Source: a virus
Virus record (IMG/VR): IMGVR_UViG_3300045391_001876
Location: 1 to 64,000 of that record
Reading direction: 5' to 3' (one strand)
DNA length: 64,000 nt
Shown piece by piece: positions 1 through 59,964 of the stretch. The position numbers and the translations under genes were made by a program. The first letter of the stretch is position 1. The number at the start of each line of letters is the position of its first letter. The notes beneath the pieces were generated by a model, which worked only from the letters and a program-made list of their open reading frames with translations, did not search any database and had not been told where the DNA came from.

Positions 1-186
1 CAGTTCCGGGAAGTGTTCCGCGATGGCTACCAGGTCTGCCCCGTGCTCCGTGGTGGTGGAGAAGTGTGCGAGCTGGTTGCCGGGTAGCTGCGCCAGTTGC
101 GCGGTTACGGTGATGGACTGTCCGCGCCCGGGCTTCTTTGTGCGCACGCATCGGGCGTACACGGTCTCACTGTCCTGTGTGGACAT
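1..186 (-). CDS. hypothetical protein, N-terminal part only (gene runs off left edge)
   Basis: ATG at 186 with AAGGAG at 193-198 (minus). Open minus frame for 62 codons to position 1 (MSTQDSETVYARCVRTKKPG...). Absent from ORF track because there is no stop in the window. Confidence 0.45.
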   Translation of the reverse strand, partial: MSTQDSETVYARCVRTKKPGRGQSITVTAQLAQLPGNQLAHFSTTTEHGADLVAIAEHFPEL

Positions 187-230
187 TCGGTGCTCCTTCG
201 GTGATCGGGAAGGTTGCTGGAGGAACGGGT

Positions 231-267
231 GCGGTGGCCCACCACTGTTGGGTCGGTGGGCCACCGC
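231..267 (-). terminator. hairpin downstream of gene 278..592
   Basis: Perfect 13-bp stem gcggtggcccacc / ggtgggccaccgc (231-243, 255-267) with an 11-nt loop, just after the minus-strand stop at 278. Confidence 0.4.
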
Positions 268-277
268 TACCTACGGG

Positions 278-592
278 CTAGTGCCCGTCGCGGTTACCGA
301 TGTAGATATCTCCTTCCACGTACGTGATCGCGGTGCCGTCCGGTGCCCGTAGCGCGTAGTGGTAGGCGGCCATGTACCAGATAGGCACCCAACCGGCCTC
401 CATCAGCGCCTCATACACCGTGTCGTCCCCACCGGAACCGGCGAAGAAGCCGTCACCCTCGGTGGAAACCCCTGGGCCGTAAGGGTTCCGCTCATGGGAC
501 AGGATGGCGACCACGGCATCCGCTGTGGTCGCGCTACGCAGCTCCTTTAGCTGGGCAGCAACCTTGGCCCAGAACCCGGACTGATCAGGCAT
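278..592 (-). CDS. hypothetical protein (104 aa)
   Basis: ORF 278..694 trimmed to ATG 592 (MPDQSGFWAKV...). Protein-like composition. A near-copy of the 13-bp word sits just upstream (599). Confidence 0.55.
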   Translation of the reverse strand: MPDQSGFWAKVAAQLKELRSATTADAVVAILSHERNPYGPGVSTEGDGFFAGSGGDDTVYEALMEAGWVPIWYMAAYHYALRAPDGTAITYVEGDIYIGNRDGH

Positions 593-724
593 CGGTCCCT
601 CCACTGTGGACAGTCGTTGTTTGCGTGCACCGGTCGCATGCAGGCACCGGACCGAGTACGGGGTGTGGCTGCCAGTGGGTGGCCTGCCGGTCACACCGCA
701 GGAACCACGCGCACTGGTACTCCG

Positions 725-1033
725 TCACCGATTGGCCGGCCATACCGCCTGCTCCGCTTGCGCGTGGACACTCCAGGTCCACAGGTCACACAGGTCCCGG
801 ATCACCCCGGCCTCCCGTACACCACGCAACAGGCCCACGATGCTGGCCCGTAGCTCCACCGGGTCCACCGTCCCCCAGCAGAACAGGCTGAGGAATGGCG
901 CCCCCAGTACGGCCGCGGAGCTGTGTCGGCCGGCGATACTGCGCGCGTCGCTGTCGGTCAGTGGCCACCCGTCCGACCGCTGGTCCACCTCCTCCCGTAA
1001 CAACATGGCTTCCTGGTCCGTGGTCAGCATCAT
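725..1033 (-). CDS. hypothetical protein (102 aa)
   Basis: ORF 725..1366 trimmed to ATG 1033 (MMLTTDQEAM...). GGGGGAGGG RBS upstream. ATGA-type overlap with the stop of the upstream gene. Confidence 0.55.
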   Translation of the reverse strand: MMLTTDQEAMLLREEVDQRSDGWPLTDSDARSIAGRHSSAAVLGAPFLSLFCWGTVDPVELRASIVGLLRGVREAGVIRDLCDLWTWSVHAQAEQAVWPANR

Positions 1034-1596
1034 GTGCCCTCCCCCTCTGTTGATGCGATTGCGTCCGTGACCTGGCCCAGCTCCAGGGCCAGCTCCTGCA
1101 TCGCGGCCGATTCCATGTGCCGCTGGACGTAGTCCACCAGCGCCAGCAACTGAGGTGTGTCGCTCCTTACGTCTTGTACGGAGACCGGGCTGTCCTCCCC
1201 GAACCACCACACCAGCGCGTTCCGTACATCCGGAGGTAGTGCCGACCAACCCTCGTCCACTGTGGACAGTGGTTCCGGTCCACCACATGCCTCCACAGCT
1301 GCCAACGCGCAAGCCGGTGCGTCCTCGGGTGGCCAGGAACTGCGCATGTAGGAGTGCCAGGACCACGCGTCGGTAACGGTTGCGTGTTCCTTGCCCCGGG
1401 AGGTCAAGCGCGGACCGCTGACGTACACATCTATCAAGCGCTGTGGTGCACCAGCGAACTGCACGCGCACCAGCCGTGCCCGAAACGTGGAGCTACGGCC
1501 CAGGCACGTCACCTCCAGGTCGGTGGCTTCCTCTCCTTCCAGCACGAACGCGACCTTGCGGTTCGGTACCGGTATGTGGTCCTCGATCATCCTCAT
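1030..1596 (-). CDS. hypothetical protein (188 aa)
   Basis: ORF 1030..1869 trimmed to ATG 1596 (MRMIEDHIPV...). ATGA overlap with the small upstream ORF. Confidence 0.6.
   Translation of the reverse strand: MRMIEDHIPVPNRKVAFVLEGEEATDLEVTCLGRSSTFRARLVRVQFAGAPQRLIDVYVSGPRLTSRGKEHATVTDAWSWHSYMRSSWPPEDAPACALAAVEACGGPEPLSTVDEGWSALPPDVRNALVWWFGEDSPVSVQDVRSDTPQLLALVDYVQRHMESAAMQELALELGQVTDAIASTEGEGT
1255..1267. repeat. 13-bp word GTCCACTGTGGAC (perfect copy 1)
   Basis: Read directly. Lies in gene 1030..1596 and is read as L-S-T-V-D. Confidence 0.9.
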
Positions 1597-1763
1597 GTCT
1601 GCTTCCGTCCCTTGGTTTTGGTCTGGCGCTCCCACGCGTCGGCACAGTCCTGATCGCAGAACCACCTGTTCCACCGGGTGATCACGGATTGGACCGGCCG
1701 GTTGAGCTGGCACCAGGCACACATCGTTCGCTCTGGGTCTTCCAGTGGCTCGCAGGACCGCAT
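1593..1763 (-). CDS. small zinc-finger protein (56 aa), hand-translated
   Basis: ATG 1763 to TGA 1593 (MRSCEPLEDPERTMCAWCQLNRPVQSVITRWNRWFCDQDCADAWERQ...). CxxC...FCxxxC pattern. Stop overlaps the next start. Below the ORF-track size cutoff. Confidence 0.45.
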   Translation of the reverse strand: MRSCEPLEDPERTMCAWCQLNRPVQSVITRWNRWFCDQDCADAWERQTKTKGRKQT

Positions 1764-1876
1764 CATGACGCGGCACCGAGCATCTGAACCGGTGCCAGCA
1801 ACACCACCTCCGTGATGTTGGTACGCAGCTCCACATCGGGCGGCATGGTGCGCGTGTCGCTGTACCCAAGGACGCG

Positions 1877-1904
1877 GAGGACCCGCCTATCGAGGCGGGT
1901 CCTC
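1877..1904 (-). terminator. hairpin downstream of gene 1936..2307
   Basis: Perfect 11-bp stem gaggacccgcc / ggcgggtcctc with a 6-nt loop. Confidence 0.45.
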
Positions 1905-1935
1905 TCTGCGATGGGCCAGTAGGTTCGGGTGCGGG

Positions 1936-2786: not shown

Positions 2787-3061
2787 CGTGTCGTCTCCTG
2801 TCGGATGGTGCGGTAGCGGTACGCGGGCTTGTCGTCGGGACCGGTGTACGCCGGCCACAACCGCGCGTGGTGGGTGCACATGCGAACGCGGTCGTGGCTG
2901 CCACCCCTGGCCGCCGCCCATGCCTTGTGTGTGGCCGGTGATCCGCACGGGTAGTCCTCGGCCGTGCCGTACCCGAAGTAGGCCGCAAAGGTGAGCTGAC
3001 ACGTTTGGCGCGGGGAACGGCGCCCCTTGCGGGGGCGCCGTGCGCTGGCGGCGCTTGTCAT
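2783..3061 (-). CDS. hypothetical protein (92 aa)
   Basis: ORF 2783..3097 trimmed to ATG 3061 (MTSAASARRPRKG...). ATGA overlap with the upstream stop. Confidence 0.5.
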   Translation of the reverse strand: MTSAASARRPRKGRRSPRQTCQLTFAAYFGYGTAEDYPCGSPATHKAWAAARGGSHDRVRMCTHHARLWPAYTGPDDKPAYRYRTIRQETTR

Positions 3062-4032
3062 CGCGCGATGGTGGCGTAGGCGCGCGTGCAACCACACGTC
3101 AGCTTCCAGTACTGCTCCACGCCACCGTCCACCAGGCGCGCACCCGTGATGGTGATCCGCTGTTCACCGTGCTCGGGGCACATCGGCACCTCTCCCTCCA
3201 CGCCTTCGGGCATACCGGACCCAGTGTGGAGATTGAGTCCATTGTGGACGAAAACTTCTGCTCCACAGTCGGCCCGTGCGATGTCAGCGGCGGCTTCCTG
3301 GCGTTCGGTGACCTCGTCCTCGGTCATGGCGGCGATGTCGGCCGGTGTGGGGATCGCTCCTCCCGGGAAGACGTACCCGGCCTCGGTCACCAGCCTGGCC
3401 CACAGGTCCAGCGGCACGGTGACGGTGGCGTCCAACACCTCGTCGCCCTCCTGTTCCGGACCCTCGTCTTCTTCGGCGCGGGCGGCTGGGACGGTGGTGT
3501 CCTGCTCGGCGCGCGGGGTACCGAAGCGTTGCGCGTCCCCGTAGGCGGCGAACGTCCACGTGCCGTCCGCGTTGCTGGTGATCCGGCCACTGGCACCGTC
3601 GTTGAACTCGATCACCAGGCCCCGGTCGTCGGTGTACAGGATTCCCCAACCGTCACGCCCGCTGATTCGCGGTCCGGCCAGCGTGTAGCTACCACCGTCG
3701 CTAGCGTGGCGGGTGTATGTGGCGTAGGGGGTGATGATCCCGTTGTCCCCGTACCAGAACGCAACGGCGGCGCGAAGCAGGTCCGGTGTCATCCGCGTAA
3801 TCAGCGGGTCCGTGGTGGTTGTGGTGGCGTCGCCGGCGTAGTCGTCGGTGGCTTCTCCGGCCTCCAGGTCGTGGGTGCAGTCGATGCGCAGCATCTCGCA
3901 AGGCTTGCAAGATGTACCGGCGGCGGCGTTGCGCTCGGCGTTGGCGATGGCTTCGGCGTCCTCGGCGGCAACCCGCGCGTCCAGCGCGGCGAGGTACTTC
4001 GGGTCTGCGGTTCGGCTCTGGTAAGTGCTCAC
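3058..4032 (-). CDS. hypothetical protein (324 aa)
   Basis: ORF 3058..4146 trimmed to GTG 4032 (VSTYQSRTADPKYL...) behind a GGGAG RBS. Acidic central region. Confidence 0.6.
   Translation of the reverse strand: MSTYQSRTADPKYLAALDARVAAEDAEAIANAERNAAAGTSCKPCEMLRIDCTHDLEAGEATDDYAGDATTTTTDPLITRMTPDLLRAAVAFWYGDNGIITPYATYTRHASDGGSYTLAGPRISGRDGWGILYTDDRGLVIEFNDGASGRITSNADGTWTFAAYGDAQRFGTPRAEQDTTVPAARAEEDEGPEQEGDEVLDATVTVPLDLWARLVTEAGYVFPGGAIPTPADIAAMTEDEVTERQEAAADIARADCGAEVFVHNGLNLHTGSGMPEGVEGEVPMCPEHGEQRITITGARLVDGGVEQYWKLTCGCTRAYATIAR
3221..3268. repeat. 48-nt segment, inverted near-copy of 30473..30520
   Basis: 44/48 identical to the reverse complement of 30473-30520. Centred on a 13-bp word copy. 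Confidence 0.85.
3237..3249. repeat. 13-bp word GTCCATTGTGGAC (perfect copy 2)
   Basis: Read directly. In gene 3058..4032 in the unusual phase (V-H-N-G-L). Confidence 0.9.
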
Positions 4033-5010: not shown

Positions 5011-5691
5011 ATGCCTACACCTATCGCCACCTCGCTCCTTCCGCTGGCAATTCCGGTCGATAACTTGGTCCTGGACGCCACGAACGCGCGCCGGGGTGAC
5101 GTGGCCGCGATCCGCCGTAGCTTGAACGTGTTCGGGCAACGCAAGCCGGTTGTGGTCAAGCGCACCGGACAGGACGCGCAAGGGCGCCCCACGGGTGTGG
5201 TGATCGCCGGCAACCACACCCTGAGCGCGGCCCTGGAGTTGGGGTGGGCCGAGATCGCCGCCGTGTTCGTGGAGGACGACGACCAGACAGCCAAGGCCTA
5301 CGCGCTGGCCGACAACCGCACCGCCGAGCTGGCCACCTGGGACTATGAACAACTGGCCACCACGCTGGCCGAGCTGCAAGACAGCGAGCTGGACCTGACC
5401 GACCTGGGGTGGCAACCACACGAGCTGGAGGGGTTGCTGGGGGCCACGTGGACTCCAGCACCGCCAAGCGCGGACCTGGAGTCGTTCTCCAACGGGCGTA
5501 AGCACGCCATCACGCTGTCGGACAGCTCGTGGCCCATCGTGGAGCGCGCGCTGAACCTGGTGCGGGAACAGCTCGGTGACCTCACCTTGACCGACGAGGC
5601 CGCGCTAATCCATGTGTGCCAGGGATACACGGCGGAGCCTCGTGGGGAGTTCGTTATCAGTGACAACGCTGCGGTTGGTGGGAGCAAGTGA
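5011..5691 (+). CDS. ParB N-terminal domain protein (possible DpdB-like partner of DpdA)
   Basis: ParB/Srx-type motif ...KPVVVKR...VVIAGNHTLSAALELGWAEI. First gene of the deazaguanine operon. Confidence 0.8.
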   Translation: MPTPIATSLLPLAIPVDNLVLDATNARRGDVAAIRRSLNVFGQRKPVVVKRTGQDAQGRPTGVVIAGNHTLSAALELGWAEIAAVFVEDDDQTAKAYALADNRTAELATWDYEQLATTLAELQDSELDLTDLGWQPHELEGLLGATWTPAPPSADLESFSNGRKHAITLSDSSWPIVERALNLVREQLGDLTLTDEAALIHVCQGYTAEPRGEFVISDNAAVGGSK

Positions 5692-5836
5692 CAGCGCGCG
5701 GCGGCGGTTGGCCCGCGCGTTTGCGGAACGACCGGAGGACGAGCTGACCACCATGCGACTTGCCACCACGGGAAGCAACGGGGCCAACGGCACCAGGGGA
5801 AGCCTCCGGCGCGGACTGGCGGTGGGAGAGGACCCG

Positions 5837-6745
5837 ATGACCACGGTTCGGCTGGTGGGGGCACACGCGGTCAAGTCCGGTTTCCTGCGCCACGGGTTGG
5901 GCGACACCACCCCCACCCGGTACGCGCGACCGGCACTGCTGGTGTCCTGGTGGTACTGGCAGACGTTCTCCGAGGAACGGGAGCACTACTCCTTCCGGGA
6001 CTACTCCCTGGACAGTGGGGCGTTCAGCGCGCACAACAGCGGCGTGACCATCGACTTCCAGGAGTACCAGACGGCCGCGGCAACGCTGCTTGCGTCCGAT
6101 CCCCAGTGCACAGAGGTTTTCGCGCTCGATGTCATCGGGGACTGGCGGGCGAGCCTGCGCAACACCGAGACCATGTGGGAGGCCGGTATACCGGCCATCC
6201 CGACGTACCACATCGGTGAACCGGAACACGTCCTCAAGCACCTGGCGGCCACTTACCCCAAGATCGCCATCGGTGGTGCGGTCGGCCTACACCTGGCACG
6301 TAAGAAGGAGTGGATCAGACAGGTCTTCGCCCGTGTGTGGCCCAAGCCGATTCACGGGTTGGGGATGGGGAGCGAACAGCTCGCAATGGGCTTCCCGTTC
6401 CACAGCATGGACGCCACCAACTGGGAGATGGCTCCGGCCGCCTACGGCAACTGGAAGTCCATGCCAGGCGGCAGTATCCGTGGTGGTAACCAGCCGCTTC
6501 GGATGGAGGTGGAGTGGTATCTGCGCCTGGAGGAACGCGTACAGGCCCGGTGGCGTAAGGAGATGACACTGCTGGCGGAGATGCTGGAGAAGGACACCCC
6601 CGCTTCCATCCGTCTTGCTGTGGTGGCGCGGGGCAACAACCGGATCATCGGCGGCCTACGCGACCCGGCCATGCGCTTGGCGGTTGCGGCCCCCAACACA
6701 CAGAGCGGCACGGCCAAGCGGGCACGGAAGGGGTTGGCCGGGTGA
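5837..6745 (+). CDS. dpdA: DpdA-like DNA guanine transglycosylase (TGT superfamily)
   Basis: TGT-like catalytic motifs LDSGAFSA and HSMDATNW. ATG 5837 behind GGGAGAGGA. The frame is open from 5612, so 5678 (GTG) or 5753 (ATG) are alternative starts. Confidence 0.7.
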   Translation: MTTVRLVGAHAVKSGFLRHGLGDTTPTRYARPALLVSWWYWQTFSEEREHYSFRDYSLDSGAFSAHNSGVTIDFQEYQTAAATLLASDPQCTEVFALDVIGDWRASLRNTETMWEAGIPAIPTYHIGEPEHVLKHLAATYPKIAIGGAVGLHLARKKEWIRQVFARVWPKPIHGLGMGSEQLAMGFPFHSMDATNWEMAPAAYGNWKSMPGGSIRGGNQPLRMEVEWYLRLEERVQARWRKEMTLLAEMLEKDTPASIRLAVVARGNNRIIGGLRDPAMRLAVAAPNTQSGTAKRARKGLAG

Positions 6746-7559: not shown

Positions 7560-8278
7560 CGGTACTGACACAGCAGAACGCACCGTCCATTGTGGTCTCC
7601 GAGGTTTTCGGTCCCACGCTGCAAGGGGAAGGCCGCAACCTCGGGCAGCGCGCGGCCTTCGTGCGCTTGGGCGGATGCAACTTGCACTGCTCCTGGTGCG
7701 ATACCCCGTACACATGGGACGCGTCGCGTTTCGACCTGCACAAGGAGATGCGCCGCGTACCTGTGTCCACTGTGGTCACACAGGTAGCGGCCATGAACCC
7801 CAACGTGGTGGTGGTCACGGGCGGGGAACCGCTGCTATGGCGTGGACACGCCGGCTGGGATGCGCTGATACCAGAGCTGGCCGCGATCGGCCCCGTGGAG
7901 GTCGAGACCAATGGCACCCAGTTCCCCGGAGCGGAACAGGTGGCTTGCTACAACGTCTCCCCCAAGCTGGCCCATGCCGGTGACCCGGAGGAACGGCGGA
8001 TCAACCGGGACGTGCTGTCGGCCTTCGCCGAGCTGGCCCACGCGGGCCGCGCGATCCTCAAGGTTGTCGTCACCAACCCGGAGGATGTCCGTGCCGGGGC
8101 TCAGCTAGCCCGAGAGACATCGTGGCCGATGTCCACGGTGTACGTGATGCCGGAGGGCACAAGCCCGCTCATGCTTGCGCTGCGCCACGCGATGGTGGCC
8201 AATGCGGTTCTGGACGAGGGGGTCAACATGACCACGCGGCTACACGTGCTTTGTTGGAACACGGAGCGTGGACGGTGA
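7556..8278 (+). CDS. queE: 7-carboxy-7-deazaguanine synthase (radical SAM)
   Basis: EVFGPTLQGEG and the GGCNLHCSWCDT cluster motif. Confidence 0.9.
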   Translation: MTVLTQQNAPSIVVSEVFGPTLQGEGRNLGQRAAFVRLGGCNLHCSWCDTPYTWDASRFDLHKEMRRVPVSTVVTQVAAMNPNVVVVTGGEPLLWRGHAGWDALIPELAAIGPVEVETNGTQFPGAEQVACYNVSPKLAHAGDPEERRINRDVLSAFAELAHAGRAILKVVVTNPEDVRAGAQLARETSWPMSTVYVMPEGTSPLMLALRHAMVANAVLDEGVNMTTRLHVLCWNTERGR

Positions 8279-22172: not shown

Positions 22173-22184
22173 GGAGACAGTCCA

Positions 22185-41387: not shown

Positions 41388-41515
41388 CCACCACCAGTAC
41401 GCAGACCCCACCACAGCGGCCGTACGAGGAGTGCTGCCGCTGTGGGGTGGACGCATACAACCCGAAAACCGGCCACTGTGGACACTGCGGTGCGACATCG
41501 AGGAGTACGCCATGA
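41384..41515 (+). CDS. small zinc-ribbon protein (43 aa)
   Basis: ATGA overlap. CCRCG...HCGHCG. Confidence 0.35.
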   Translation: MTTTSTQTPPQRPYEECCRCGVDAYNPKTGHCGHCGATSRSTP

Positions 41516-44474: not shown

Positions 44475-44944
44475 CGCATCCCCTGGTCCGCGCATTCATG
44501 GTGGGCTCGATATTCGCAGCGGTTGTGGTGATCGTTGCGACTGCCACAGGAGTTGGCATGCCTGGACATATCGACGGTTACTTTCGGCACATACCGCTGG
44601 CCGAGCTACGCAAGCACATGGACTCGGCCCCTGTGCCAACCGGTGCTGTGTTGATAACCGAGGAGGCCGAGGAAGGATCAGCGGACCGGGCCACCACACT
44701 GACGCGAGAGTATCGCACGACACCAAAAAGTCCGGCCTGCGCGCAAGTTGTGTATGCGGCTCGCGCGGCCGGGTGGGAGTTTATATACGCAGGTAGGCCT
44801 ATCGACCCTAGAACCTGCGCGACAAACCACGATGTGGCGTTGGGCGATCTGATTCCACATGCGACACAGGCCGCCCCGATCACAGTTACCTGGGACGGCC
44901 CGCGACTGTTCTACTCGTTGACCGAGGGCGACATGCCCCTCTAG
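44471..44944 (+). CDS. membrane-anchored protein (157 aa)
   Basis: N-terminal transmembrane span FMVGSIFAAVVVIVATATGV. Last gene before the convergent repressor. Confidence 0.55.
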   Translation: MTHPLVRAFMVGSIFAAVVVIVATATGVGMPGHIDGYFRHIPLAELRKHMDSAPVPTGAVLITEEAEEGSADRATTLTREYRTTPKSPACAQVVYAARAAGWEFIYAGRPIDPRTCATNHDVALGDLIPHATQAAPITVTWDGPRLFYSLTEGDMPL

Positions 44945-45381
44945 TCCCCGTTAACCGAAAGGCCCTCGTCCGTCGCCGGCGAGGGCCTTTCGTGTTTCTG
45001 GAGCACGCGCTGTTGCTCCGCTAACTCCAACACTCTTACGCGGCCGGTGGTGTTCAGCTCCCGCCAAACTTCCAGTAAGCGGATCAGGGCCGCGTCGCCG
45101 TCCATCATGCCGCCGAGGGCCATCATCAGTGTGGTTACGGGTAGTTCCAAACCTGCGGCCAGCTTGTCCAATGTGGACTGTCTTACCGAGTAGTGCCTAC
45201 GGTGGCGGTCCAGGATGCTGTACAGCGTGGTGACCGGTAGCTCGCTGCGCTTGGCAAGCTGAGCCTTGGACCAACCACGCGCAGTCCGTGTGCCTTCGAT
45301 CAACTCGCGCAACTGGTCCGGCTTGTCGGTGCGAGGGTTCGAGTGCACAGGTGGGGTCCTCCCTGTCCGCTTAGGACACAT
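44941..45381 (-). CDS. XRE-family HTH repressor (candidate immunity repressor)
   Basis: GWSKAQLAKRSELPVTTLYSILD is an HTH. Divergent from a Cro-like operon. ATG 45381 (ORF opens at TTG 45390). Confidence 0.75.
   Translation of the reverse strand: MCPKRTGRTPPVHSNPRTDKPDQLRELIEGTRTARGWSKAQLAKRSELPVTTLYSILDRHRRHYSVRQSTLDKLAAGLELPVTTLMMALGGMMDGDAALIRLLEVWRELNTTGRVRVLELAEQQRVLQKHERPSPATDEGLSVNGD
44956..44992 (+). terminator. hairpin terminator lying inside the 3' end of the convergent repressor gene
   Basis: 13-bp perfect stem cgaaaggccctcg / cgagggcctttcg, an 11-nt loop, then tgtttct. Confidence 0.5.
45166..45178. repeat. 13-bp word GTCCAATGTGGAC (perfect copy 10)
   Basis: In the repressor gene, read as S-T-L-D. 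Confidence 0.9.
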
Positions 45382-45533
45382 GGCGGGCAAACCCTACACG
45401 TAGCACATCCCCGTCCCAGGGGTGGACGACATCGTTAATGACGGTGCTAACTAGGCACTCTCCCAATGGCCATAGGCCCTAGCCACGGGTGTACGCGGTC
45501 GCGTAGAACCGAAGGCACGCTTTTCCGTGCCTC

Positions 45534-45548
45534 GATCCCGCAAGGATC
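45534..45548. promoter_or_regulatory. operator-like palindrome GATCCCGCAAGGATC
   Basis: RATCC-N5-GGATC family, 18 nt upstream of TTG 45567. Preceded by a 7-bp hairpin (45513-45532). Confidence 0.5.
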
Positions 45549-45566
45549 TAAGGGGGGTGGTTCATC

Positions 45567-45848: not shown

Positions 45849-45854
45849 GACACA

Positions 45855-46201: not shown

Positions 46202-46575
46202 CGGATGAGGAACTGGACCCGTACTTCGTGGTCCTGGACGACTATGCGTCGCTGATCGAAGAGTACGAGGCGGCCAAGGTCGTCGCGTCCAACGCGGACG
46301 AGGAAGTCCGGCGGCTTAGGGACATGCTGGTAAAACTCCTACCTGCCAAGGAGGAGGCACCGGACGGCTGCATCGGTACCCACACCGGTAAGGCGCGACT
46401 CAGCTACCGCCCCCAGGCCCGCCGCCAGCTCGACCACTACAAGCTCCGCACGGTGTACCCATCGGTGTACGAGTCGTGTTCGGCCTACGCGGTCAGTTGG
46501 ATACTGCGCACGCTACCGGTGGCACAGGACAACACCGGTACACCGGAAGCCGCGTCCACTGTGGACACACCGTGA
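46198..46575 (+). CDS. hypothetical protein (125 aa)
   Basis: Packed operon with an acidic N-terminus. Confidence 0.5.
   Translation: MTDEELDPYFVVLDDYASLIEEYEAAKVVASNADEEVRRLRDMLVKLLPAKEEAPDGCIGTHTGKARLSYRPQARRQLDHYKLRTVYPSVYESCSAYAVSWILRTLPVAQDNTGTPEAASTVDTP
46554..46566. repeat. 13-bp word GTCCACTGTGGAC (perfect copy 11)
   Basis: Read as S-T-V-D. Confidence 0.9.
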
Positions 46576-47298: not shown

Positions 47299-48068
47299 CC
47301 ACCGACATGTTCGTGGCACCGCAACCTCCAGGGGCCGAGCCGATCCCTGCCAACCCGTCCCTACTGGAGGGAACACCGTTTGCCGGCTGGGTCCGGGAGA
47401 CGCTGTGGACGGCCACACACGACCTGCCGCGGAGTCGTCAAACCACCATCGGCCCCAGCCAGCTCGGGTTGTCGTGCTCCCGGCAGATCGCGTTCCAAGT
47501 AGCCGGCGTGACACCGGTCAACTTCAGCATCGACCCGCTACCCAGCATGGTGGGCACCGCGATGCACGCGTTCGTCGCGTCCGTGTTCGCCGGCCTGCGC
47601 CCACCCGGCCGCTACCTGGTGGAGCAGCGCGTTACGTACCAGGGCGTCAGCGGAACGCTGGACCTGTATGACCGCCGTACAGGCACGGTGTTCGACTGGA
47701 AGTTCCCCAAGCTGGCCAAGCTGCGCCGCGTGCTATCGGAGGGACCACCACGCCACTATCAGTGGCAGCTTCAGACGTACGCGGCCGGGCTTGCTGCACA
47801 AGGGGAAAAGCCGACCCGTCTGGCCGTGGTGTACATCCCGGTGGACGGAGCCCTGACCGACATCACGGCGTGGGTGTACCCCGTGGTGACGGCCGAAGCC
47901 GACCAGGCCGTGGACCGCCTGGCCACTGTCCGAACGCAACTCGGTAACACAGCACACCCCGGAGCCGTACCCGCACAGCCGTCGCGCCTGTGCCCGTGGT
48001 GCCCCTACCACCGTCCACAGTGGACAGGTGACCTGGACGTTGCCTGCCCCGGAGAGGAAACCAAGTGA
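47286..48068 (+). CDS. Cas4/RecB-family exonuclease
   Basis: GTLDLYD...FDWKF nuclease motifs. Cys cluster: one N-terminal Cys plus C-terminal CPWCPY...C. Confidence 0.65.
   Translation: MVEVTTDMFVAPQPPGAEPIPANPSLLEGTPFAGWVRETLWTATHDLPRSRQTTIGPSQLGLSCSRQIAFQVAGVTPVNFSIDPLPSMVGTAMHAFVASVFAGLRPPGRYLVEQRVTYQGVSGTLDLYDRRTGTVFDWKFPKLAKLRRVLSEGPPRHYQWQLQTYAAGLAAQGEKPTRLAVVYIPVDGALTDITAWVYPVVTAEADQAVDRLATVRTQLGNTAHPGAVPAQPSRLCPWCPYHRPQWTGDLDVACPGEETK
48013..48025. repeat. 13-bp word GTCCACAGTGGAC (perfect copy 12)
   Basis: Read in the unusual phase P-Q-W-T. Confidence 0.9.
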
Positions 48069-48637
48069 GCGAGTTCAGCGGTCCGTCCAATGTGGACGCC
48101 ATCGAGTGGAAGTCCCTCTATGGCAAACTCCTGGCCATCTGGCCGTACGGCCGCGAGGTAACCGGTACCAAGTTCGGGGAGAAGGCCTGCATCCGGGCCG
48201 ACGTGTACGACCTGGACGCCGGTATGCCGGTCAGCATGGACGCGCTGATTTTCCCGCGCGCACTGGTGATGCAGTGTGGGGGCATTCCACGCGGTAAGGC
48301 TGTGATCGGTCGGTTGGGTCAGGGCGAGTCGCGCGGTGGTCAAACCCCACCGTGGAAGTTGAGTGACCCGACACCGGAAGACCTTGCGCGGGCACAGGCC
48401 TACTTTGCGGCCAAGCCTCCGCGTATCCACAGCATGCTTGGTCGCTCCCCATCACCCACACCGAGCTACCAACCAACCCAACAGGTCCAGCAGCCGCCGG
48501 CACAGCCCGCTTACCAGTACCCCCCACAGCAACCCCAGCCCCCACAGCAACCGGTGTATCCACCGCCACAGCAACCCCAGCCCCCACAGCAACCCACTTA
48601 CCAACCCCCGCCGAACACAGGTCAGCCGCCCTACTGA
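48065..48637 (+). CDS. hypothetical protein with Pro/Gln-repeat C-terminus (190 aa)
   Basis: Globular N-terminal part, then a QPPAQPAYQYPPQQPQPPQQPVYPPPQQPQPPQQPTYQPPP tail. Confidence 0.55.
   Translation: MSEFSGPSNVDAIEWKSLYGKLLAIWPYGREVTGTKFGEKACIRADVYDLDAGMPVSMDALIFPRALVMQCGGIPRGKAVIGRLGQGESRGGQTPPWKLSDPTPEDLARAQAYFAAKPPRIHSMLGRSPSPTPSYQPTQQVQQPPAQPAYQYPPQQPQPPQQPVYPPPQQPQPPQQPTYQPPPNTGQPPY
48085..48097. repeat. 13-bp word GTCCAATGTGGAC (perfect copy 13)
   Basis: Read as S-N-V-D. Confidence 0.9.
48524..48594 (+). repeat. direct repeat, 29-bp ccacagcaaccccagcccccacagcaacc twice with 42-bp period
   Basis: Copies at 48524-48552 and 48566-48594. Confidence 0.9.
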
Positions 48638-48678
48638 CAGACAGCGCTCACTGTCCGCCAGGTTGAGGGGAGTCCACT

Positions 48679-50670
48679 GTGGAAGGTGAGGCGATTCAGC
48701 GTGTGCTGGATCGGTTGGAATCGGTCAACCGATCCGGCACCGGCTGGTCGGCACGCTGTCCGGCACACGACGACGGGGTCAACTCCCTGTCTGTGTCCAC
48801 AGGCGACAGTGCTGGTGTACTTCTCCACTGCCACGCGGGATGCACCGTCCAGGACGTAGTGGTCGCGCTCGGCTTGTCAATGACGGACCTACAAGGCCAA
48901 CCGGTCCGGGTGGCGGAGTACCCGTACCACGACGTGGACGGCAACGTGCTCTACACCGTGGAGCGGTGGGCCAACCCCAAGAAGTTCCGGTGTGTGCCGT
49001 CCCTACCCGAGCCGGCTCGTCGCGTGCTGTTCGCGCAGCAGTGGATCACCTATGCCCGCGACAGCGGTCGAACCATATACGTGGTGGAAGGGGAGAAGGA
49101 TGCGTGCTCCTTGCAGGCACTGGGAATCCCGGCCACCTGCAACGTACTGGGGGCTGGTCCCGGCAAGTGGTACCCGCATTACTCGGACCAACTGGCCGGC
49201 TGCTCCGTGGTCGTGGTGGCCGACAACGATGAACCCGGCAAAGCTCACGCGCGAGCTGTCGCGGCTGCGCTCCGCGACACGGCAAAGTCCGTGGCACTCG
49301 CGGTTCCACACGACGGCCACGGCAAGGACATCACGGAGTTCCTTGAGGCCGGGTACACAGTGGACAGACTGGCCACGCTACCGGAGCGGGAATCCCTACC
49401 AGCACTCAACTCGGCACATGTGATGCCGGGCCGAGTGGAATGGGTGTGGCCCGGCTACATCCCACGCGGGAAACTGACCACAGTGGAGGGTGACCCGGGG
49501 GACGGGAAATCCACGCTGACCATCGACCTAGTAGCCCGGTGGTCCACCGGTATGCAGATGCCTGACGGCGCGGCCAGCGGCGGCCCGTACACCGCGATGA
49601 TGATCAGCGCGGAGGACGACCCAGAAGACACGGTTGTGCCGCGACTGATCGCGGCCGGTGCGGACAGGCACCGCGTCTATCTGTTGTCCAGCGGCGCGGA
49701 CCCGGACCGCCCGTTCAATCTCGGGGTGGACCTGACCGAGCTGGAACGCACCATTACCAGTCTCGGTGTGCAGATTCTGGTACTGGACCCGTTGTCGTCC
49801 TTCCTCCCGGACGACACGGACTCCCACAGCGACCACAAAATCCGCCGCGCGCTGTACCCGCTGCATCTCCTGGCACGTCGGGCCAACGTTGCTGTGATCG
49901 CGGTACGCCACCTGTCCAAATCGGCCACCAAGGCGATCTATGCCGGCAACGGTTCCATCGGCATCATCGCGGCGGCCCGTGCCGCCTTCATGGTCGGTCC
50001 CGTACCGGGCGGAGATCCGCTGGACCGCGCGCTTGTGCCTATCAAGTGCAACCTGGCCGCCAAACCACCAGCGTTGGGCTACCGGGTCCAGGTCCACCCA
50101 CACCACGGCACGGGCTACATCCTGTGGGCCGGCCCCATCGACATGGTGGCCCAGGAGCTGTTGGACGGAGAGAAGGCCCAGGTACAACGGCTCACCAGAG
50201 ACCTGGCCCGGGAGTACCTATCTGAGCTAACCGACCACGCACCTATGACGTGGCGGGAGATCAGCACGCGTGCCAAGGCCGATGGCTACAGCGAGCACAC
50301 GCTGCGCGATGTACGAGCACACGTACTGGCCAAGTTCATCAACCCGATCATGCCCGGGGGTGAGCGCATGGAGGGCACCTACTGGGTTCGTCTCGACCAG
50401 GTCGACACGTTCAGTGACGTCGTTGCCGGCCTTGCCGTTGATAACCGTACGGAAATCCACGGCAAGGCGGCAGCGACGGAACAGATCGTAACCACAGACG
50501 TGGAGTCCACACAGGACAGTGAGGAAGCACTAGACCGCGCCGAGGACGCGCTGTTGTGTGCACCGAGCGTGTGTGACGTCTGCGGAAGCCTGGATGGCAC
50601 GGTGTTCCCGCGTCCGTATCTGGTGATCCGTTGTCCAACCCACGACCCTCGCAAGTGGACAGACCAGTGA
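48679..50670 (+). CDS. DNA primase/helicase (zinc finger + Toprim + RepA/AAA_25-like NTPase)
   Basis: CPAHDD...CHAGC, Toprim VVEGEKDA...VADNDEPG, and Walker A GDPGDGKST. Confidence 0.85.
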   Translation: MEGEAIQRVLDRLESVNRSGTGWSARCPAHDDGVNSLSVSTGDSAGVLLHCHAGCTVQDVVVALGLSMTDLQGQPVRVAEYPYHDVDGNVLYTVERWANPKKFRCVPSLPEPARRVLFAQQWITYARDSGRTIYVVEGEKDACSLQALGIPATCNVLGAGPGKWYPHYSDQLAGCSVVVVADNDEPGKAHARAVAAALRDTAKSVALAVPHDGHGKDITEFLEAGYTVDRLATLPERESLPALNSAHVMPGRVEWVWPGYIPRGKLTTVEGDPGDGKSTLTIDLVARWSTGMQMPDGAASGGPYTAMMISAEDDPEDTVVPRLIAAGADRHRVYLLSSGADPDRPFNLGVDLTELERTITSLGVQILVLDPLSSFLPDDTDSHSDHKIRRALYPLHLLARRANVAVIAVRHLSKSATKAIYAGNGSIGIIAAARAAFMVGPVPGGDPLDRALVPIKCNLAAKPPALGYRVQVHPHHGTGYILWAGPIDMVAQELLDGEKAQVQRLTRDLAREYLSELTDHAPMTWREISTRAKADGYSEHTLRDVRAHVLAKFINPIMPGGERMEGTYWVRLDQVDTFSDVVAGLAVDNRTEIHGKAAATEQIVTTDVESTQDSEEALDRAEDALLCAPSVCDVCGSLDGTVFPRPYLVIRCPTHDPRKWTDQ

Positions 50671-52622
50671 CCAACTACGCGCAAGGCCTACCGGGTGTGC
50701 TGGCCAGCGGGGCACCAGCGGACGGCGTACCGCGATACCGGGAAACCACACCAGCCCATGTGCCCAGCAACTGGGAGCGGCCCCGGGGCATCTACCGCAA
50801 GCTCCAGGCGGCCAAGCCTTTCGCGCTGGACTGGCAACCGACCACCACGCTACGCATCGACGGCCAACCCGATACTCCGGTCTGGGTAGCTGACACACCG
50901 GACCAGCTCCGGGCCGTGGTCCACCATGTCTGGCGTCAACCAGCCCTATCGCTGGACACTGAATCCAGCGACAAGCGCGGCATCTACACCGAACAGTTCC
51001 GGTTGCGGACCATCCAACTGGCCACGCCCACCAGCGTGGTTTACATACCGGTGGACCGGCACGAACCTGCCAAGCTGCGCGCGCTGTTCATCCACGGCAC
51101 CTCGTGGTTGGTCCATAACGCGGCCTTCGACCTAGCTGTTCTGGACGCGCAACTGGCCGTATCGCTCGACGATATGTGGCCGTCCACTGTGGACAGCATG
51201 CTGTACGCGCAACTGGTACAGCATCCGACCACCCGTGCAGGTGACGGTGCATTCCCGGCCGCGCTTAAGGAGCTAACACGCAAGCTTGTTGACCCCGAGT
51301 ATGGGGAGGACAAAGAGCTGCGCTCCGTGATGCGCCGCAACAAGTGGACATGGGCCACCGTCCCCACCGATTGCCCGGAGTACATCCGGTACGCGGCCCT
51401 GGACCCCGTGATCACCATTCACGTGTTCATACACCTCCTACGTGCCAGTCGTTTGGCCGACGAACCGCTGTATGAGTACGAGGCGCGCGTCGCATGGCTG
51501 ATGTGTCGGCTGGCCCGTCGCGGTCTCAGCGTGGACAGCGACCGTGCCACCGCGCTTGTCGACCAGTTCACCACGCGCCATGCCGAGGTGGTTTCGCTGT
51601 TCGACACGTACGGCCTGGACCCGGAATCACCGGATACGCACGACAACAAACGCGCGTTCGTGGCCGCGATGAGCACGCGTGGTGTCGCGCTGACAAAGAC
51701 CACACCTAAGAACGGCCTTCCCGCTCTGGACGCGATAACACTGGTGGACGCGTGCCTGGCAGCAGACAAGCCGGACGACGCGCTGTATCTGGCCTGGACC
51801 GATCTGCACCAGGCCGGGAAGTACCGGACCGCCTACGTGGAGCCGTTCCAAAACGCTGCCGCGTCCGGTGGCCGCGTACATCCGGTGATCCGCACCCTGG
51901 GAGCACGCACAGGTCGGATGTCCATCTCCGACCCGCCCCTCCAGCAGCTCCCGCGTATCGGATCGGTACGGGCCTGTCTGTGTGCCGACCCTGGGCACGT
52001 ACTGGTGGGCGCGGACTATGCGGCCATCGAGATGCGGGTCGCCGCCGCGTTGAGCGCAGACCCGACCATGCGCCGGCTGATCGCGGAAGGCGTAGACATC
52101 CATGACACCGTGGCCCGATCCCTGTTTGGCCCGGCATTTACCGACGAGCAACGCAACGTGGCCAAGCGGGCCGGGTTCGGTCGGTTGTTCGGTGCTGGCG
52201 CAGCCACGGTCGCTCGACAGTGCCGCGTACCGGAACATGTGGCAGCCAGTGCGCTGGAGGCCTTCGACGCGCTGTTCCCCGGTGTTCAGCGGTACGCGCA
52301 TCGTGTAGCCCGGGAACAGGAGTTGGTTACCTTCTCCGGGCGGCGTATCCGCGCGGACGAGGCGCGGCCCTACGCCAACATCAATTACTACGTCCAGTCC
52401 ACGGCACGGGACGTGTTCGTGCTCGGTGGGATGCGCGCGGCCGGGTCCGGGCTGGAGCCGTACCTGTGGCTGCCGGTCCATGACGAGTGGATCGTGCAAG
52501 CACCGGAGCCGGACGCCGTGGAGGTGGCACACGTACTGGAGGACGCGCAGGCAAGCGCACTGGGGGGTGTGTCGTTCGTGGCTTCGGCCAAGGTGATCGG
52601 TCGCAACTGGGTCAAGTCATGA
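50667..52622 (+). CDS. DNA polymerase I (family A) with 3'-5' exonuclease domain
   Basis: LDTES (Exo I), DYAAIEMRVAA (motif A), RNVAKRAGFGRLFG (motif B), VHDEWIV (motif C). GTG 50667 overlaps the primase stop. Confidence 0.9.
   Translation: MTNYAQGLPGVLASGAPADGVPRYRETTPAHVPSNWERPRGIYRKLQAAKPFALDWQPTTTLRIDGQPDTPVWVADTPDQLRAVVHHVWRQPALSLDTESSDKRGIYTEQFRLRTIQLATPTSVVYIPVDRHEPAKLRALFIHGTSWLVHNAAFDLAVLDAQLAVSLDDMWPSTVDSMLYAQLVQHPTTRAGDGAFPAALKELTRKLVDPEYGEDKELRSVMRRNKWTWATVPTDCPEYIRYAALDPVITIHVFIHLLRASRLADEPLYEYEARVAWLMCRLARRGLSVDSDRATALVDQFTTRHAEVVSLFDTYGLDPESPDTHDNKRAFVAAMSTRGVALTKTTPKNGLPALDAITLVDACLAADKPDDALYLAWTDLHQAGKYRTAYVEPFQNAAASGGRVHPVIRTLGARTGRMSISDPPLQQLPRIGSVRACLCADPGHVLVGADYAAIEMRVAAALSADPTMRRLIAEGVDIHDTVARSLFGPAFTDEQRNVAKRAGFGRLFGAGAATVARQCRVPEHVAASALEAFDALFPGVQRYAHRVAREQELVTFSGRRIRADEARPYANINYYVQSTARDVFVLGGMRAAGSGLEPYLWLPVHDEWIVQAPEPDAVEVAHVLEDAQASALGGVSFVASAKVIGRNWVKS
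51182..51194. repeat. 13-bp word GTCCACTGTGGAC (perfect copy 14)
   Basis: Read as S-T-V-D in Pol I. Confidence 0.9.
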
Positions 52623-54185: not shown

Positions 54186-54501
54186 GCCCATCGAACCAAT
54201 GGACGTCCGCGCGTTCCTGGACCGGTTGCGGGTACCAGACCTGCCGGTCGACTTCCCAACGGCACCAGGGCAAACCGTGACGGTCATTCTGGACCAAGCC
54301 GGGCATCAGTCCCGGGACTACACGGTGTGCGGCACGACGCAGTGTGTCGACTGTGGACACACGGTGCTGCTGGGCACTCAAAGCTTTGACGCGGTGGTGT
54401 CCGGTCGCGCGCTTCCCCTGTGCCACCCGTGTTCCCTGCTGATGTTCGAGTCGAGTAAGTGGACCGGCTCCACGTACATCGGTCGTGTGGAGGACTCATG
54501 A
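54178..54501 (+). CDS. hypothetical zinc-ribbon protein (107 aa)
   Basis: GTG 54178 (ATG 54199 is an alternative). CVDCGH...CHPC. Confidence 0.45.
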   Translation: MSEPIEPMDVRAFLDRLRVPDLPVDFPTAPGQTVTVILDQAGHQSRDYTVCGTTQCVDCGHTVLLGTQSFDAVVSGRALPLCHPCSLLMFESSKWTGSTYIGRVEDS

Positions 54502-58655: not shown

Positions 58656-58660
58656 CCAAC

Positions 58661-59002
58661 ATGTGGCAGCACGTGTTGACATCGGCCTCCTGCTTTGTCG
58701 CAGGATCTCTGTCCTATAGGACGCTTGTCGTGTTGTGGCGTCGGTTGACCCACGTTGCTGCCATTACCGTTGACGCCATGCGGCGGCGAATGGTGAACAC
58801 AGCGGGTGCAGCGCGCCTGGCCAGGGTTAAGCCGGCCACGATCAGGAAGTGGTCCGAGCGTGGGACCTTGAAGGGCCACCGGGTACACGACGGGTCGCGC
58901 GTGCACAAGGTGTATGACGTAGACGACGTACTGCACGCGGAAAAGCGGCACCGGGATCATGGCGGCGGCTCTTGCGCAGGACGACACGGTGCGTCACAGT
59001 GA
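58661..59002 (+). CDS. MerR/excisionase-like HTH protein (113 aa)
   Basis: VNTAGAARLARVKPATIRKWSERGTL is an HTH, preceded by a hydrophobic N-terminus. Confidence 0.45.
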   Translation: MWQHVLTSASCFVAGSLSYRTLVVLWRRLTHVAAITVDAMRRRMVNTAGAARLARVKPATIRKWSERGTLKGHRVHDGSRVHKVYDVDDVLHAEKRHRDHGGGSCAGRHGASQ

Positions 59003-59205
59003 CCCGTGATGGTGGGCGTACTATCCCCGCTGACGCCGCGTGCCTGTGGGTGTCCCTCCCGTTCGCCACGTTCGGCCTGGTCATCCTGAACGGGTTTGTG
59101 GTGGCAGCCCCTCCCATCGCTCGGTGGAGCTGTGGCCGTAACGCGCACGATGTCGTCGCGTACTACCGTGCCCGAGGTGCCCGGCTCCAGCAGGTTCCCC
59201 GATAA
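58999..59205 (+). CDS. hypothetical protein (68 aa)
   Basis: GTGA overlap. Hydrophobic core LPFATFGLVILNGFVVAAPP. Confidence 0.45.
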   Translation: MTRDGGRTIPADAACLWVSLPFATFGLVILNGFVVAAPPIARWSCGRNAHDVVAYYRARGARLQQVPR

Positions 59206-59206
59206 C

Positions 59207-59250
59207 GACACCACCCCCCGTACCGGAGATCGCGTACGGGGGGTGGTGTC
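59207..59250 (+). terminator. strong hairpin ending the rightward early/replication operon
   Basis: 17-bp perfect stem gacaccaccccccgtac / gtacggggggtggtgtc with a 10-nt loop, starting 2 nt after the last stop. Confidence 0.6.
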
Positions 59251-59334
59251 GGGGGTAACGCGCTAGCCGGCACGCCACTCCATATATCGCTGCCCTCAGA
59301 CAAAGACAGCGGATACCCACAAGCAGTATGGCCT

Positions 59335-59345
59335 ACGTGTCACGC
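59335..59345. promoter_or_regulatory. near-copy (10/11) of palindrome ACGTGTCACGT
   Basis: acgtgtcacgc, in the non-coding gap 59251-59381. Confidence 0.3.
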
Positions 59346-59381
59346 GAACGGCAAGACACGAACGCGTGTATCCGCTGTGCA

Positions 59382-59597
59382 CTAGGACATCCAGCCCGGC
59401 GGGTACTGGTCGGGTCGTGGTCTGTCCACCGCCCTACCTTCGGCCAGCTCGACCGCTGCCGGCACTGTGATGTCCCAGTAGAACCGGTGGTGCGTACGGC
59501 AGCCCTTGAGGTGCTGTACATCCTTCGGCAAACCATGTCGTGCGACCTGGTAGACCAACCGTAAGTGGCACAGTCGCTCGCTGAGGTTGGATGCCAC
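59382..59597 (-). CDS. hypothetical protein (71 aa)
   Basis: High third-position GC. ATG one nucleotide after the upstream stop. Confidence 0.4.
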   Translation of the reverse strand: MASNLSERLCHLRLVYQVARHGLPKDVQHLKGCRTHHRFYWDITVPAAVELAEGRAVDRPRPDQYPPGWMS

Positions 59598-59598
59598 C

Positions 59599-59964
59599 TC
59601 AGTTCACCACGCGCCCGTGCACGTCGTACTGGTCGGCCGACAGACCACTGCGCCCCATCTCCACCGGGTGCCCGATGCGGGAACAGTGACAGTTGACCAA
59701 CAGCGCTTGCTTCGCGTCGGTCCACCCGTAGATGCAGCAGTTGCCGCACTTCCCGGCGTAGCAGGACACGCAGATACTGACCTGCATCGTGTGCTGTGGC
59801 TCCGGACGAGCTGGACCGTCCACAGTGGAGCGCCTGGGCAATTCCGCGGTTCTATGTGGCCCGTCCACCACACCGATACCGGGCATGTCGACGCACCCGT
59901 CGAAGTAGCAGACCGCGTCCCCACTGTCGGTCATGAACGTGCCTGTGACCTTTCCGTGGTTCAT
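59599..59964 (-). CDS. Cys-rich hypothetical protein (121 aa)
   Basis: CVSCYAGKCGNCCIYGW...CHC. ATGA overlap with the upstream stop (ATG 59934 is an alternative). Confidence 0.5.
   Translation of the reverse strand: MNHGKVTGTFMTDSGDAVCYFDGCVDMPGIGVVDGPHRTAELPRRSTVDGPARPEPQHTMQVSICVSCYAGKCGNCCIYGWTDAKQALLVNCHCSRIGHPVEMGRSGLSADQYDVHGRVVN

Follow-up and report, generated by a model that had tools for sequence, protein, structure and literature searches.

Dispersed sites in phages, plasmids and chromosomes

The nearest published phenomenon to the one described here is found in the Cluster O mycobacteriophages, which carry a 17-bp palindromic repeat, 5'-TGTTCGGNNNCCGAACA, that is present in 34 copies in Corndog, is predicted to be bound by a dimeric protein and is of unexplained function (PMC4351075). 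Dispersed palindromic words are therefore known in actinophages but have never been explained. The subject of this analysis is a 13-bp near-palindrome, GTCCA-N-TGTGGAC (GTCCANTGTGGAC, hereafter the word), which is scattered over a GC-rich stretch of 64 kb from an uncultured temperate phage (positions 1 to 64,000 of IMG/VR virus record IMGVR_UViG_3300045391_001876, hereafter the window). The word is present at 34 sites and is selected as DNA, with comparison of relatives indicating that the sites arose independently by point substitution, and it possibly serves as a docking site for a protein of the ParB/Noc/KorB family, here called B, that is encoded in the same genome.

The Cluster O phages resemble the window in having more than 30 dyad-symmetric copies in a genome of similar size, mostly away from promoters, in an asymmetric central triplet that is independent of the direction of transcription, in encoding a protein with a ParB-like domain, and in carrying methyltransferase and glycosyltransferase genes in the structural operon. 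They differ in the sequence and length of the repeat, and the window is unrelated to them, having no nucleotide match in 50,697 GenBank phage records (the nearest TerL, from a Pontimonas phage, is 49% identical). In Corndog 14 of the 34 sites are intergenic, 10 are near gene 5' ends and about a third are clearly intragenic, whereas in the window 32 of 34 are intragenic and these are phase-locked. Furthermore, Cluster O phages lack an integrase whilst the window phage has a serine integrase, and the Cluster O repeat is confined to one closely related cluster whereas the word is shared by contigs that are otherwise unrelated.

In mechanism the window is best compared with two systems, KorB acting at the OB operators of plasmid RK2 and Noc acting at its binding sites (NBS). 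KorB has a ParB-CTPase fold and a helix-turn-helix (HTH), as is predicted for B, with its sites being 13-bp palindromes of 6-1-6 architecture that are spread over a replicon of about 60 kb, some of them inside genes or far from promoters (PMC11790492). An analogy with the KorB operators had been drawn from the letters of the window alone and it fits the architecture of the word; KorB is also among the fold matches of B, and its partner KorA is a small HTH protein, just as the gene cassette of B includes an HTH protein. KorB serves partition with the ParA-type IncC, whilst no ParA was found in the window and the binding of B is a prediction. RK2 has 12 OB sites, mostly promoter-linked, against about 34 almost all intragenic sites in the window, and the site sequences are dissimilar. 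In Bacillus subtilis Noc is a ParB paralogue without a ParA partner that has many dispersed palindromic NBS and a genome-wide, non-promoter function (PDB 7nfu, 7ng0, 7ol9). Noc is the best structural match of B, and the two are alike in having no ParA partner and, if B reads the word, in having dispersed palindromic sites, but Noc is chromosomal, membrane-tethering and not of phage origin, and NBS is unrelated to the word in sequence.

Stoperators of Cluster A phages are 13-bp asymmetric sites in about 24-36 copies that are oriented with transcription, lie mostly in short intergenic gaps and include the operator of the early promoter. They are like the window sites in copy number, in length and in their spread over a temperate actinophage genome, which points to action on the genome at large and not on one promoter, whereas their asymmetry, orientation, intergenic siting and early-promoter operator are all lacking in the window (stoperators are summarised in PMC4351075). 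The high-affinity actinobacterial DnaA box of Mycobacterium and Streptomyces, TTGTCCACA, has the core GTCCACA (PMC4285127), which is the reverse complement of the TGTGGAC half of the word. Unlike the word, such a box needs no second arm, and the window has neither an excess of solitary boxes nor more than one full 9-mer. An evolutionary analogy, and only that, is offered by the uptake signal sequences (USS) of Haemophilus and the DNA uptake sequences (DUS) of Neisseria, words of 9-12 nt that accumulate in genes by point substitution, prefer tolerated frames and recode peptides; these are chromosomal, asymmetric and driven by uptake bias. We know of no comparable drive for a phage. What sets the window apart from these known systems is the intragenic and phase-locked siting, the demonstrable recoding, the recurrence in unrelated phages and the suggested link to a mobile ParB cassette.

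Abundance of the word and selection on DNA

There are 14 perfect copies of GTCCA-N3-TGGAC in the window, all with the centre NTG or CAN, against an expectation of 0.14 and a largest count of 2 in 100 dinucleotide shuffles. When one mismatch to GTCCANTGTGGAC is allowed there are 34 distinct sites (0.85 expected from dinucleotide shuffles), a density of about 1 per 1.9 kb. The sequence-only reading had listed 14 perfect copies with such a centre and about 20 with one mismatch, and had put the chance expectation at about 0.1 perfect copies; an exact recount agrees in number and position, and the 34 sites are exactly those 14 and 20.

The excess persists when protein and codon usage are held constant. 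A self-trained codon model called 93 genes, which make 89% of the window coding (frames are reliable, start codons approximate), and synonymous codons were permuted inside each gene in 2000 shuffles that left proteins and per-gene codon usage unchanged. Against this null there are 14 perfect sites where the shuffles have a mean of 0.45 and a maximum of 4, 34 sites with up to one mismatch (mean 6.1, maximum 14) and 66 with up to two (mean 28, maximum 41). Chance, codon usage and protein composition are thereby ruled out as the source of the word. The pentamer GTCCA/TGGAC is also elevated outside the 13-mer sites, at 385 copies against 309 +/- 11 in synonymous shuffles. A literature search for the word itself returned only unrelated eukaryotic, viral and immunology papers.

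Within genes the word is strongly phase-biased, being read as G-TCC-ANN-NTG-GAC (hyphens separating codons) at 27 of 32 sites, a bias that has a binomial p of 4e-9 against one third and that holds for both orientations of the word in the gene. The figures for perfect sites (12 of 14) and near sites (15 of 18) are the same as had been counted before. A similar tendency is seen in other word-bearing contigs, where 22 of 35 callable sites have this phase by a crude inference of frame. It might be assumed that a peptide is the object of selection, since this phase yields tetrapeptides of the form S[TINS][VLM]D, and STVD alone is found 7 times against 0.46 expected from composition. This explanation is ruled out by the single, rare-codon spelling and by the sites that lie off-phase (n=5) or between genes (n=2): 14 of the 15 such tetrapeptides in called genes are spelled by the word, and all 7 STVD are written TCC-AC(T/A)-GTG-GAC, with ACT and ACA together only 22% of Thr codons and ATT, also used by the word, only 7% of Ile codons. 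It is apparent that selection acts on the nucleotide word and not on the peptide. The phase bias then follows from what coding sequence tolerates, as the two other phases force Cys or His-x-Gly, or Pro-x-Trp. This is the view that the sequence-only reading had put forward, and it is supported by the codon-aware shuffles, the peptide spelling and the orthologue alignments described below.

Anatomy of the word

Information content is limited to the 13 bp, with flanks contributing no more than 0.43 bit, although there is a mild preference for A/G, G and T at positions +14 to +16 and for Y at -1/0. Positions 7-10 (TGTG) are invariant across the 34 sites and mismatches occur at positions 1, 5, 12 and 13. 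In half of the sites there is a C at position 6, and these are perfect 6-1-6 palindromes. The heptamer TGTGGAC outside full sites is present 27 times against 22.9 +/- 3.8 expected; the half-site is thus not enriched, which argues for a reader, such as a dimer, that needs both arms. A spacing of exactly 21 bp, about two helical turns, is seen in two pairs of sites, one being the inverted pair 14998/15019 in the portal gene and the other the pair of two-mismatch sites 19059/19080 in the intergenic gap upstream of 19104. The need for two arms and the helical-repeat spacing together point to a dimeric DNA-binding protein as what produces the pattern.

A role as RNA hairpin or terminator was rejected, as the stem of the word is only 5 bp (-4.1 kcal/mol), is not significant in context (z = -0.9 to +0.15) and would be present in both orientations in transcripts.

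Placement of the sites

Placement of the sites is independent of promoters, gene ends and the direction of transcription. Inside called genes there are 32 of the 34 sites (94%), only those at 599 and 48672 being outside, and 17 have the orientation of the gene and 15 the opposite; both observations repeat what had been noted from the sequence alone. There is no excess of sites near the ends of the called genes of the window, and the sites are dispersed across the genome and not clustered, with no regular spacing (coefficient of variation of the gaps 0.85 against 0.95 for random placement, P = 0.26). A mild excess of words on the + strand was seen (23:11, p = 0.058).

In what follows the strand given for a site is the orientation of the word. 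The perfect sites begin with 1255..1267 (+, GTCCACTGTGGAC, read as STVD) and 3237..3249 (+, GTCCATTGTGGAC), the second being off-phase and read as VHNGL. Those in genes for packaging, head and tail functions and in their neighbourhood are 9310..9322 (-, TerS-like gene, STLD), 16026..16038 (-, C5 methyltransferase gene, STVD), 25952..25964 (+, SSVD), 30492..30504 (-, tape measure gene, STMD), and 32009..32021 and 33701..33713 (both +, minor tail gene, SIVD). Further along are 36068..36080 (+, gene 36027..37022, STVD), 45166..45178 (+, within the gene of the XRE repressor, STLD), 46554..46566 (+, STVD), 48013..48025 (-, in a PD-(D/E)XK nuclease gene and read off-phase as PQWT), 48085..48097 (+, SNVD) and 51182..51194 (+, STVD), the last in gene 50667..52622 that the sequence-only reading took to be Pol I.

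The sites with one mismatch start at 172..184 (+, GTCCTGTGTGGAC), which covers codons 2-5 of a gene ending at 186 on the - strand, and at the intergenic 599..611 (+, CTCCACTGTGGAC), just upstream of gene 278..592 (-). A QueE-like gene has two, 7585..7597 and 7765..7777 (both +), as does the portal gene with the inverted pair 14998..15010 (+) and 15019..15031 (-), whilst 16509..16521 (-) is a second site of the C5 methyltransferase gene. Then come 19529..19541 (+), the off-phase 22618..22630 (-), 24948..24960 (+), 25263..25275 (+) and 36260..36272 (+). Two lie in the cassette of B, 37784..37796 (+) at the 3' end of its gene C and 38979..38991 (+) within the gene of B itself. The others are 41471..41483 (+, off-phase), 48672..48684 (+), which is at the start of a Toprim/AAA_25 primase-helicase gene and outside the called genes, 49353..49365 (-), 50505..50517 (-), 54346..54358 (+, off-phase) and 59818..59830 (-).

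Origin of the sites

The closest relatives of the window are the IMG/VR contigs R1 and R2 together with L002 and L003, the portal being about 70-75% and TerL 86-88% identical. Most window sites are missing at the orthologous positions of these relatives, where 2-8 bases differ within local alignments that are 68-78% identical. In the minor tail gene, for example, the sites at 32009 and 33701 are GTCCATTGTGGAC in the window, against GGCGATCGTCGAT and GGCGTTCGCGGAC in R1; at 32009 both R1 and R2 differ at 5 bases, as does R1 at 33701. Positions orthologous to the site at 9310 in the TerS-like gene have 2-3 mismatches in R1, L002 and L003. Three sites, 14998, 16026 and 24948, are kept as one-mismatch sites in a relative, the first and last of these in R1. 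Some of the changes that create sites alter the protein (Ala to Ser/Thr).

Of 2140 site pairs a single one has flanks in common. It belongs to a 47-nt inverted duplicate (3220-3266 and 30475-30521) that is 94% identical and has one perfect site in each copy. The copies are in the gene 3058..4032 (-) and in the tape measure gene (+), and the same strand of the repeat is read there in different frames, as VHNGL and STMD. Because the flanks are otherwise unrelated and orthologous positions show substitutions, the alignments indicate that sites arose independently by point substitution. Copy-paste, a mobile mini-element (REP/MITE-like) and in-frame insertion are ruled out on the same two grounds, the orthologues showing substitutions and not insertions. 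The window is an unusually clean case, as nearly all sites are intragenic, the rare codons and amino-acid changes show a cost to protein, and the relatives show creation by point substitution.

Recurrence in other phages

Other uncultured high-GC phages, though only a subset of them, carry the word as well, and its density varies greatly between them. Giving the number of sites with 0 / 1 / 2 mismatches over the stretch examined, R1 has 1 / 6 / 7 in 37 kb and R2 0 / 5 / 10 in 18 kb, whilst L218 has 3 / 1 / 5 and L215 3 / 1 / 1 (both 18 kb), L223 has 0 / 2 / 13 (21 kb) and L227 1 / 3 / 2 (19 kb). The soil metagenome contig L206 (Ga0070683_100001739), the TerL of which is 53% identical, has 0 / 18 / 9 in 12.9 kb. 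Several copies are also present in L039, L061, L064/L120 and L078. Several of the word-bearing phages are otherwise unrelated, and they range from 62 to 70% GC. By comparison the controls, Gordonia phage BatStarr (50 kb) and a Streptomyces prophage region, have 0 / 0 / 2, and L220, L222 and L225 have 0 / 0 / 1-2 each.

In L206 the mismatches are at many different positions and no site is perfect. Under a simple decay model fitted to its one- and two-mismatch sites (18:9) about 16 perfect sites would be expected, where 0 were found, and together with the pattern in R2 this suggests that in some hosts selection may act against perfect sites. Cultured relatives were found neither for L206 nor for L039. 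The portal protein of the window is also present on a 68.6-kb Logan contig (run SRR12692950), on which the gene order matches and the coordinates are not simply collinear, so that the window may derive from a second contig encoding this protein or from a permuted copy.

A candidate reader and its cassette

It is probable that some dimeric DNA-binding protein reads the word, whether B or one of the other protein readers considered below. B is encoded at 38478..39485 (-) and has a GxxRxxA motif (SGNHRLAA), a central HTH and a helical C-terminal part. A profile of the B family matches Spo0J in the PDB (1vz0, E = 5.6e-5) over residues 57-170, the N-domain and HTH; B itself has a weak Pfam HTH_23 match at 137-177, whilst its homologues carry PF13384 and PF02195, and G93, H95, R96 and A99 of the motif are invariant in 20 homologues. 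With the AlphaFold model of B (mean predicted local distance difference test, pLDDT, 85.7) Foldseek retrieved Noc, ParB, Spo0J and KorB at probability 1.0, the alignments having about 175-237 columns. In the C-terminal part, where a dimerisation domain would be expected in this family, residues 277-328 are confidently helical in the model and nothing matched them, the matched PDB entries being C-terminally truncated constructs. Profile and predicted fold thus identify B as a genuine ParB-family protein with an HTH, as had been proposed from the sequence, and of the candidate readers it is the only one with comparative support.

On one side of B is gene A (39482..40069, -), which encodes a zinc-ribbon-like protein (CxxC...CxxC), and on the other is gene C (37742..38548, -), which encodes an HTH protein (weak HTH_17/HTH_23). 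In other contigs a gene of similar size to A precedes B and a weak homologue of C follows it, and this A-B-C-like order (L219, L218, L220, L222, L223, L227) is usually found beside integrase or primase-helicase genes of morphologically different uncultured actinophages, which suggests a mobile three-gene cassette of zinc ribbon, ParB-like and HTH proteins. In metagenomes 867 representatives of the B family, of about 330 residues, are found at E <= 1e-30, and no homologue was found by single-sequence tblastn with B in the 50,697 GenBank phage records or in PLSDB plasmids (a second query, P0009, was run against the phages only). A ParABS partition system was rejected, as there is no adjacent ParA and the sites are dispersed and not clustered.

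The word is found in 6 of 13 lineages that were fetched through B alone (R1, L219/R2, L218, L215, L223/L214 and L227/L230) and in 1-2 of 12 high-GC loci that were fetched through TerL or portal, an association that is suggestive only. We therefore put the probability that the dispersed 13-bp sites are docking sites for B at roughly 0.4, B being held at this level because of its non-sister clades, the confounding with ecology and the word-rich contigs without a detected B. Several observations weigh against B as the reader. The association is weak (Fisher p 0.04-0.11 with L227 and L230 counted as separate lineages, before they were merged as a related pair) and is confounded by shared host or ecology. 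The B proteins of word-positive phages form two non-sister clades; B proteins only 30-32% identical share the same word, and L220, at 35-37%, has none. The word is enriched without a detected B in L206, L039, L061, L064/L120 and L078, which are partial contigs that were scanned for B with a few peptide patterns. The many one-mismatch sites without a perfect one in L206 and R2 are unlike what a simple binding-site model predicts. Within the window there is no site with up to one mismatch in the 427-bp gap upstream of the cassette, and no ParA was found, gene A having no Walker motif and the neighbours in other contigs no ParA Pfam match.

The recognition helix of word-positive B proteins tends to L-[ERD]-[KRN]-A-[RK], from which the B of the window itself deviates, and co-variation of this helix with the word was too weak to be used. 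The word-negative L222, the B homologue of which is 32% identical, has a 14-bp palindrome of its own, TCAACAGCTGTTGA, in 7 copies (345, 2620, 9369, 13185, 13207, 14078 and 19166), a parallel that counts in favour of B; 6 are intergenic and one lies about 150 bp upstream of the A-B-C cassette of that phage.

The phage lineage has built a 13-bp signal into its own coding sequence by point substitutions, and if B is the reader, it would dock as a dimer with high affinity at the dispersed sites. On the model of KorB on RK2 and of Noc on the Bacillus chromosome, B may load at these sites and then spread or slide, so that coating would extend to the phage genome as a whole and not be limited to particular promoters, possibly for silencing, organising, segregating or marking phage DNA. 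A bolder proposal is that the B family coats the entire genome from a loading site every ~2 kb, with the need for sites having driven recoding that includes amino-acid changes, and that it may compete with or mimic DnaA, as the site contains the core of the host DnaA box; taken as a whole this is doubtful. Were B confirmed as the reader, the CTP-switch clamp biology of plasmids and chromosomes would extend to genome-wide coating of phage DNA, and a DNA-binding protein would be seen to mould the coding sequence of an entire virus.

Other possible readers

A different dimeric DNA-binding protein of the phage may read the sites, either C or a small HTH protein on a shared mobile module. The evidence at the level of DNA asks only for some two-arm reader, C adjoins B in every cassette and the word is present in contigs without a detected B, but C is only ~30% identical between word-bearing phages and the loci compared were not found to share any further DNA-binding gene, which makes this reading unlikely. 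A conserved host protein has also to be considered, with the word being either paired abutting DnaA boxes that titrate or recruit DnaA, or the site of a host factor that competes with it. The match of the word to the core of the DnaA box is 7/7 (PMC4285127 Table 1), positions +14/+15 are mostly purines as YYGTCCACA predicts, and recurrence in unrelated phages over the GC range given above fits a reader that is conserved across hosts. Most high-GC actinophages that were checked are without the word, though, and the left arm GTCCA shows as much constraint as the DnaA box, whereas DnaA reads single 9-mers. As solitary boxes are not enriched (besides the heptamer counts above, YYGTCCACA occurs 7 times against 6.8) and the consensus TTGTCCACA occurs once, DnaA alone is an improbable reader and the word does not fit a single DnaA box, though mimicry of DnaA binding or competition with it may play a part; a host reader in general is quite unlikely. 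Were the reader a host factor such as DnaA, this would be a new form of phage interference with host replication control.

The window phage is temperate, with genes for a serine integrase and an XRE-type repressor (44941..45390, -), and it had been suggested that the sites act like stoperators, in which case the immunity repressor would bind them in the lysogen and block prophage transcription. The number of sites, ~30 of 13 bp, is that of stoperators and one perfect site is within the repressor gene. This analogy does not hold well, as the sites are quasi-palindromic, not oriented with transcription and 94% intragenic, and no site with up to one mismatch is present in the 506-bp intergenic gap between repressor and early genes (45349-45854), where a true operator would be expected and where the closest match, at 45771, has two mismatches. 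Among the word-bearing loci, L218 and L215 show no detectable homologue of the repressor and L219 has one of only 38% identity, and silencing of this kind is very unlikely. Even less probable is the earlier suggestion that a DNA-modification enzyme acts on the word or loads there, either the C5 methyltransferase or the pair of a ParB-like protein (no HTH found) and a DpdA-like transglycosylase at 5011..6745 (+), which would insert a 7-deazaguanine. The phage does encode ParB-like, TGT/DpdA-like, QueD, QueE, GTP cyclohydrolase and C5 methyltransferase proteins, and phage base-modifying enzymes with a ParB-like partner have been described (PMC13229309; PMC10164549), but a modification target need not be over-represented and the known DpdA context is short and CxGCxG-like (PMC10164549). 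Moreover, L003 keeps the Dpd genes at 74-82% identity, yet has no site with up to one mismatch in 11 kb, and R1 has sites without a methyltransferase gene between protease and capsid. The last reading to be weighed, and one that is hardly probable, is a Chi-like or nuclease-protection signal, or a site of nicking or recombination at DNA ends or in replication. It would account for the even dispersal over the genome and the mild excess on the + strand, and PD-(D/E)XK nuclease genes co-occur with the word in several loci. Known Chi sites are asymmetric words of 5-8 nt, and none of them resembles a word with dyad symmetry and twelve fixed positions; the half-site is not enriched on its own, the strand bias is weak, and nucleases of that family also occur in two loci with no word or only a degenerate one, L220 and L223, so that the Chi-like signal proposed in the sequence-only reading finds little favour.

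Other features of the genome

A further repeated word in the window, CGCTGGACCTGT, has 6 perfect and 5 one-mismatch copies, at 3402, 4749, 10760, 15875, 28883, 32904, 34311, 47656, 48481, 53150 and 54538. Ten are in called genes, the copy at 15875 being upstream of the called start of the methyltransferase gene, and 8 of the 10 point with the gene and are read as xLDL, or a one-residue variant, in preferred codons. Protein-preserving shuffles have 1.09 perfect copies (maximum 5) against the 6 observed, and 5.5 against 11 with up to one mismatch, and the excess is largely a codon or peptide effect with a modest surplus. A shorter core, CCANNGTGG, appeared elevated in more genomes but was not built on, its centre being heterogeneous and the core overlapping the context of a Trp codon. 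Relative to a third-order Markov model the words GGGACTA (16 against 3.4), TGACCGAGG (11 against 0.8), GGAGAAG (34 against 10) and GAGCTG (128 against 58) are also over-represented.

Upstream of TerS/TerL is a 7-deazaguanine module (5011-8910), conserved in R1 and L003, which encodes a ParB-like protein (phrog_620), a TGT/DpdA-like protein (phrog_887), QueD, QueE and GTP cyclohydrolase I. No QueC was detected in this module, which does contain an open reading frame of 131 residues (6742-7137) without a family match. The C5 cytosine DNA methyltransferase gene (15871-16722) lies between the genes of the prohead protease and the major capsid protein; an orthologue is present in R2 (68%) and not in R1, where the gap between protease and capsid is only ~460 bp. 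A tandem 42-bp repeat, with two copies that are 83% identical, is found at 48521-48604 in gene 48065..48637. In the structural operon, after the capsid gene, there are Pfam matches to a methyltransferase, an epimerase and two glycosyltransferases at 19104-23147, an arrangement that recalls the capsid-modification genes of Cluster O.

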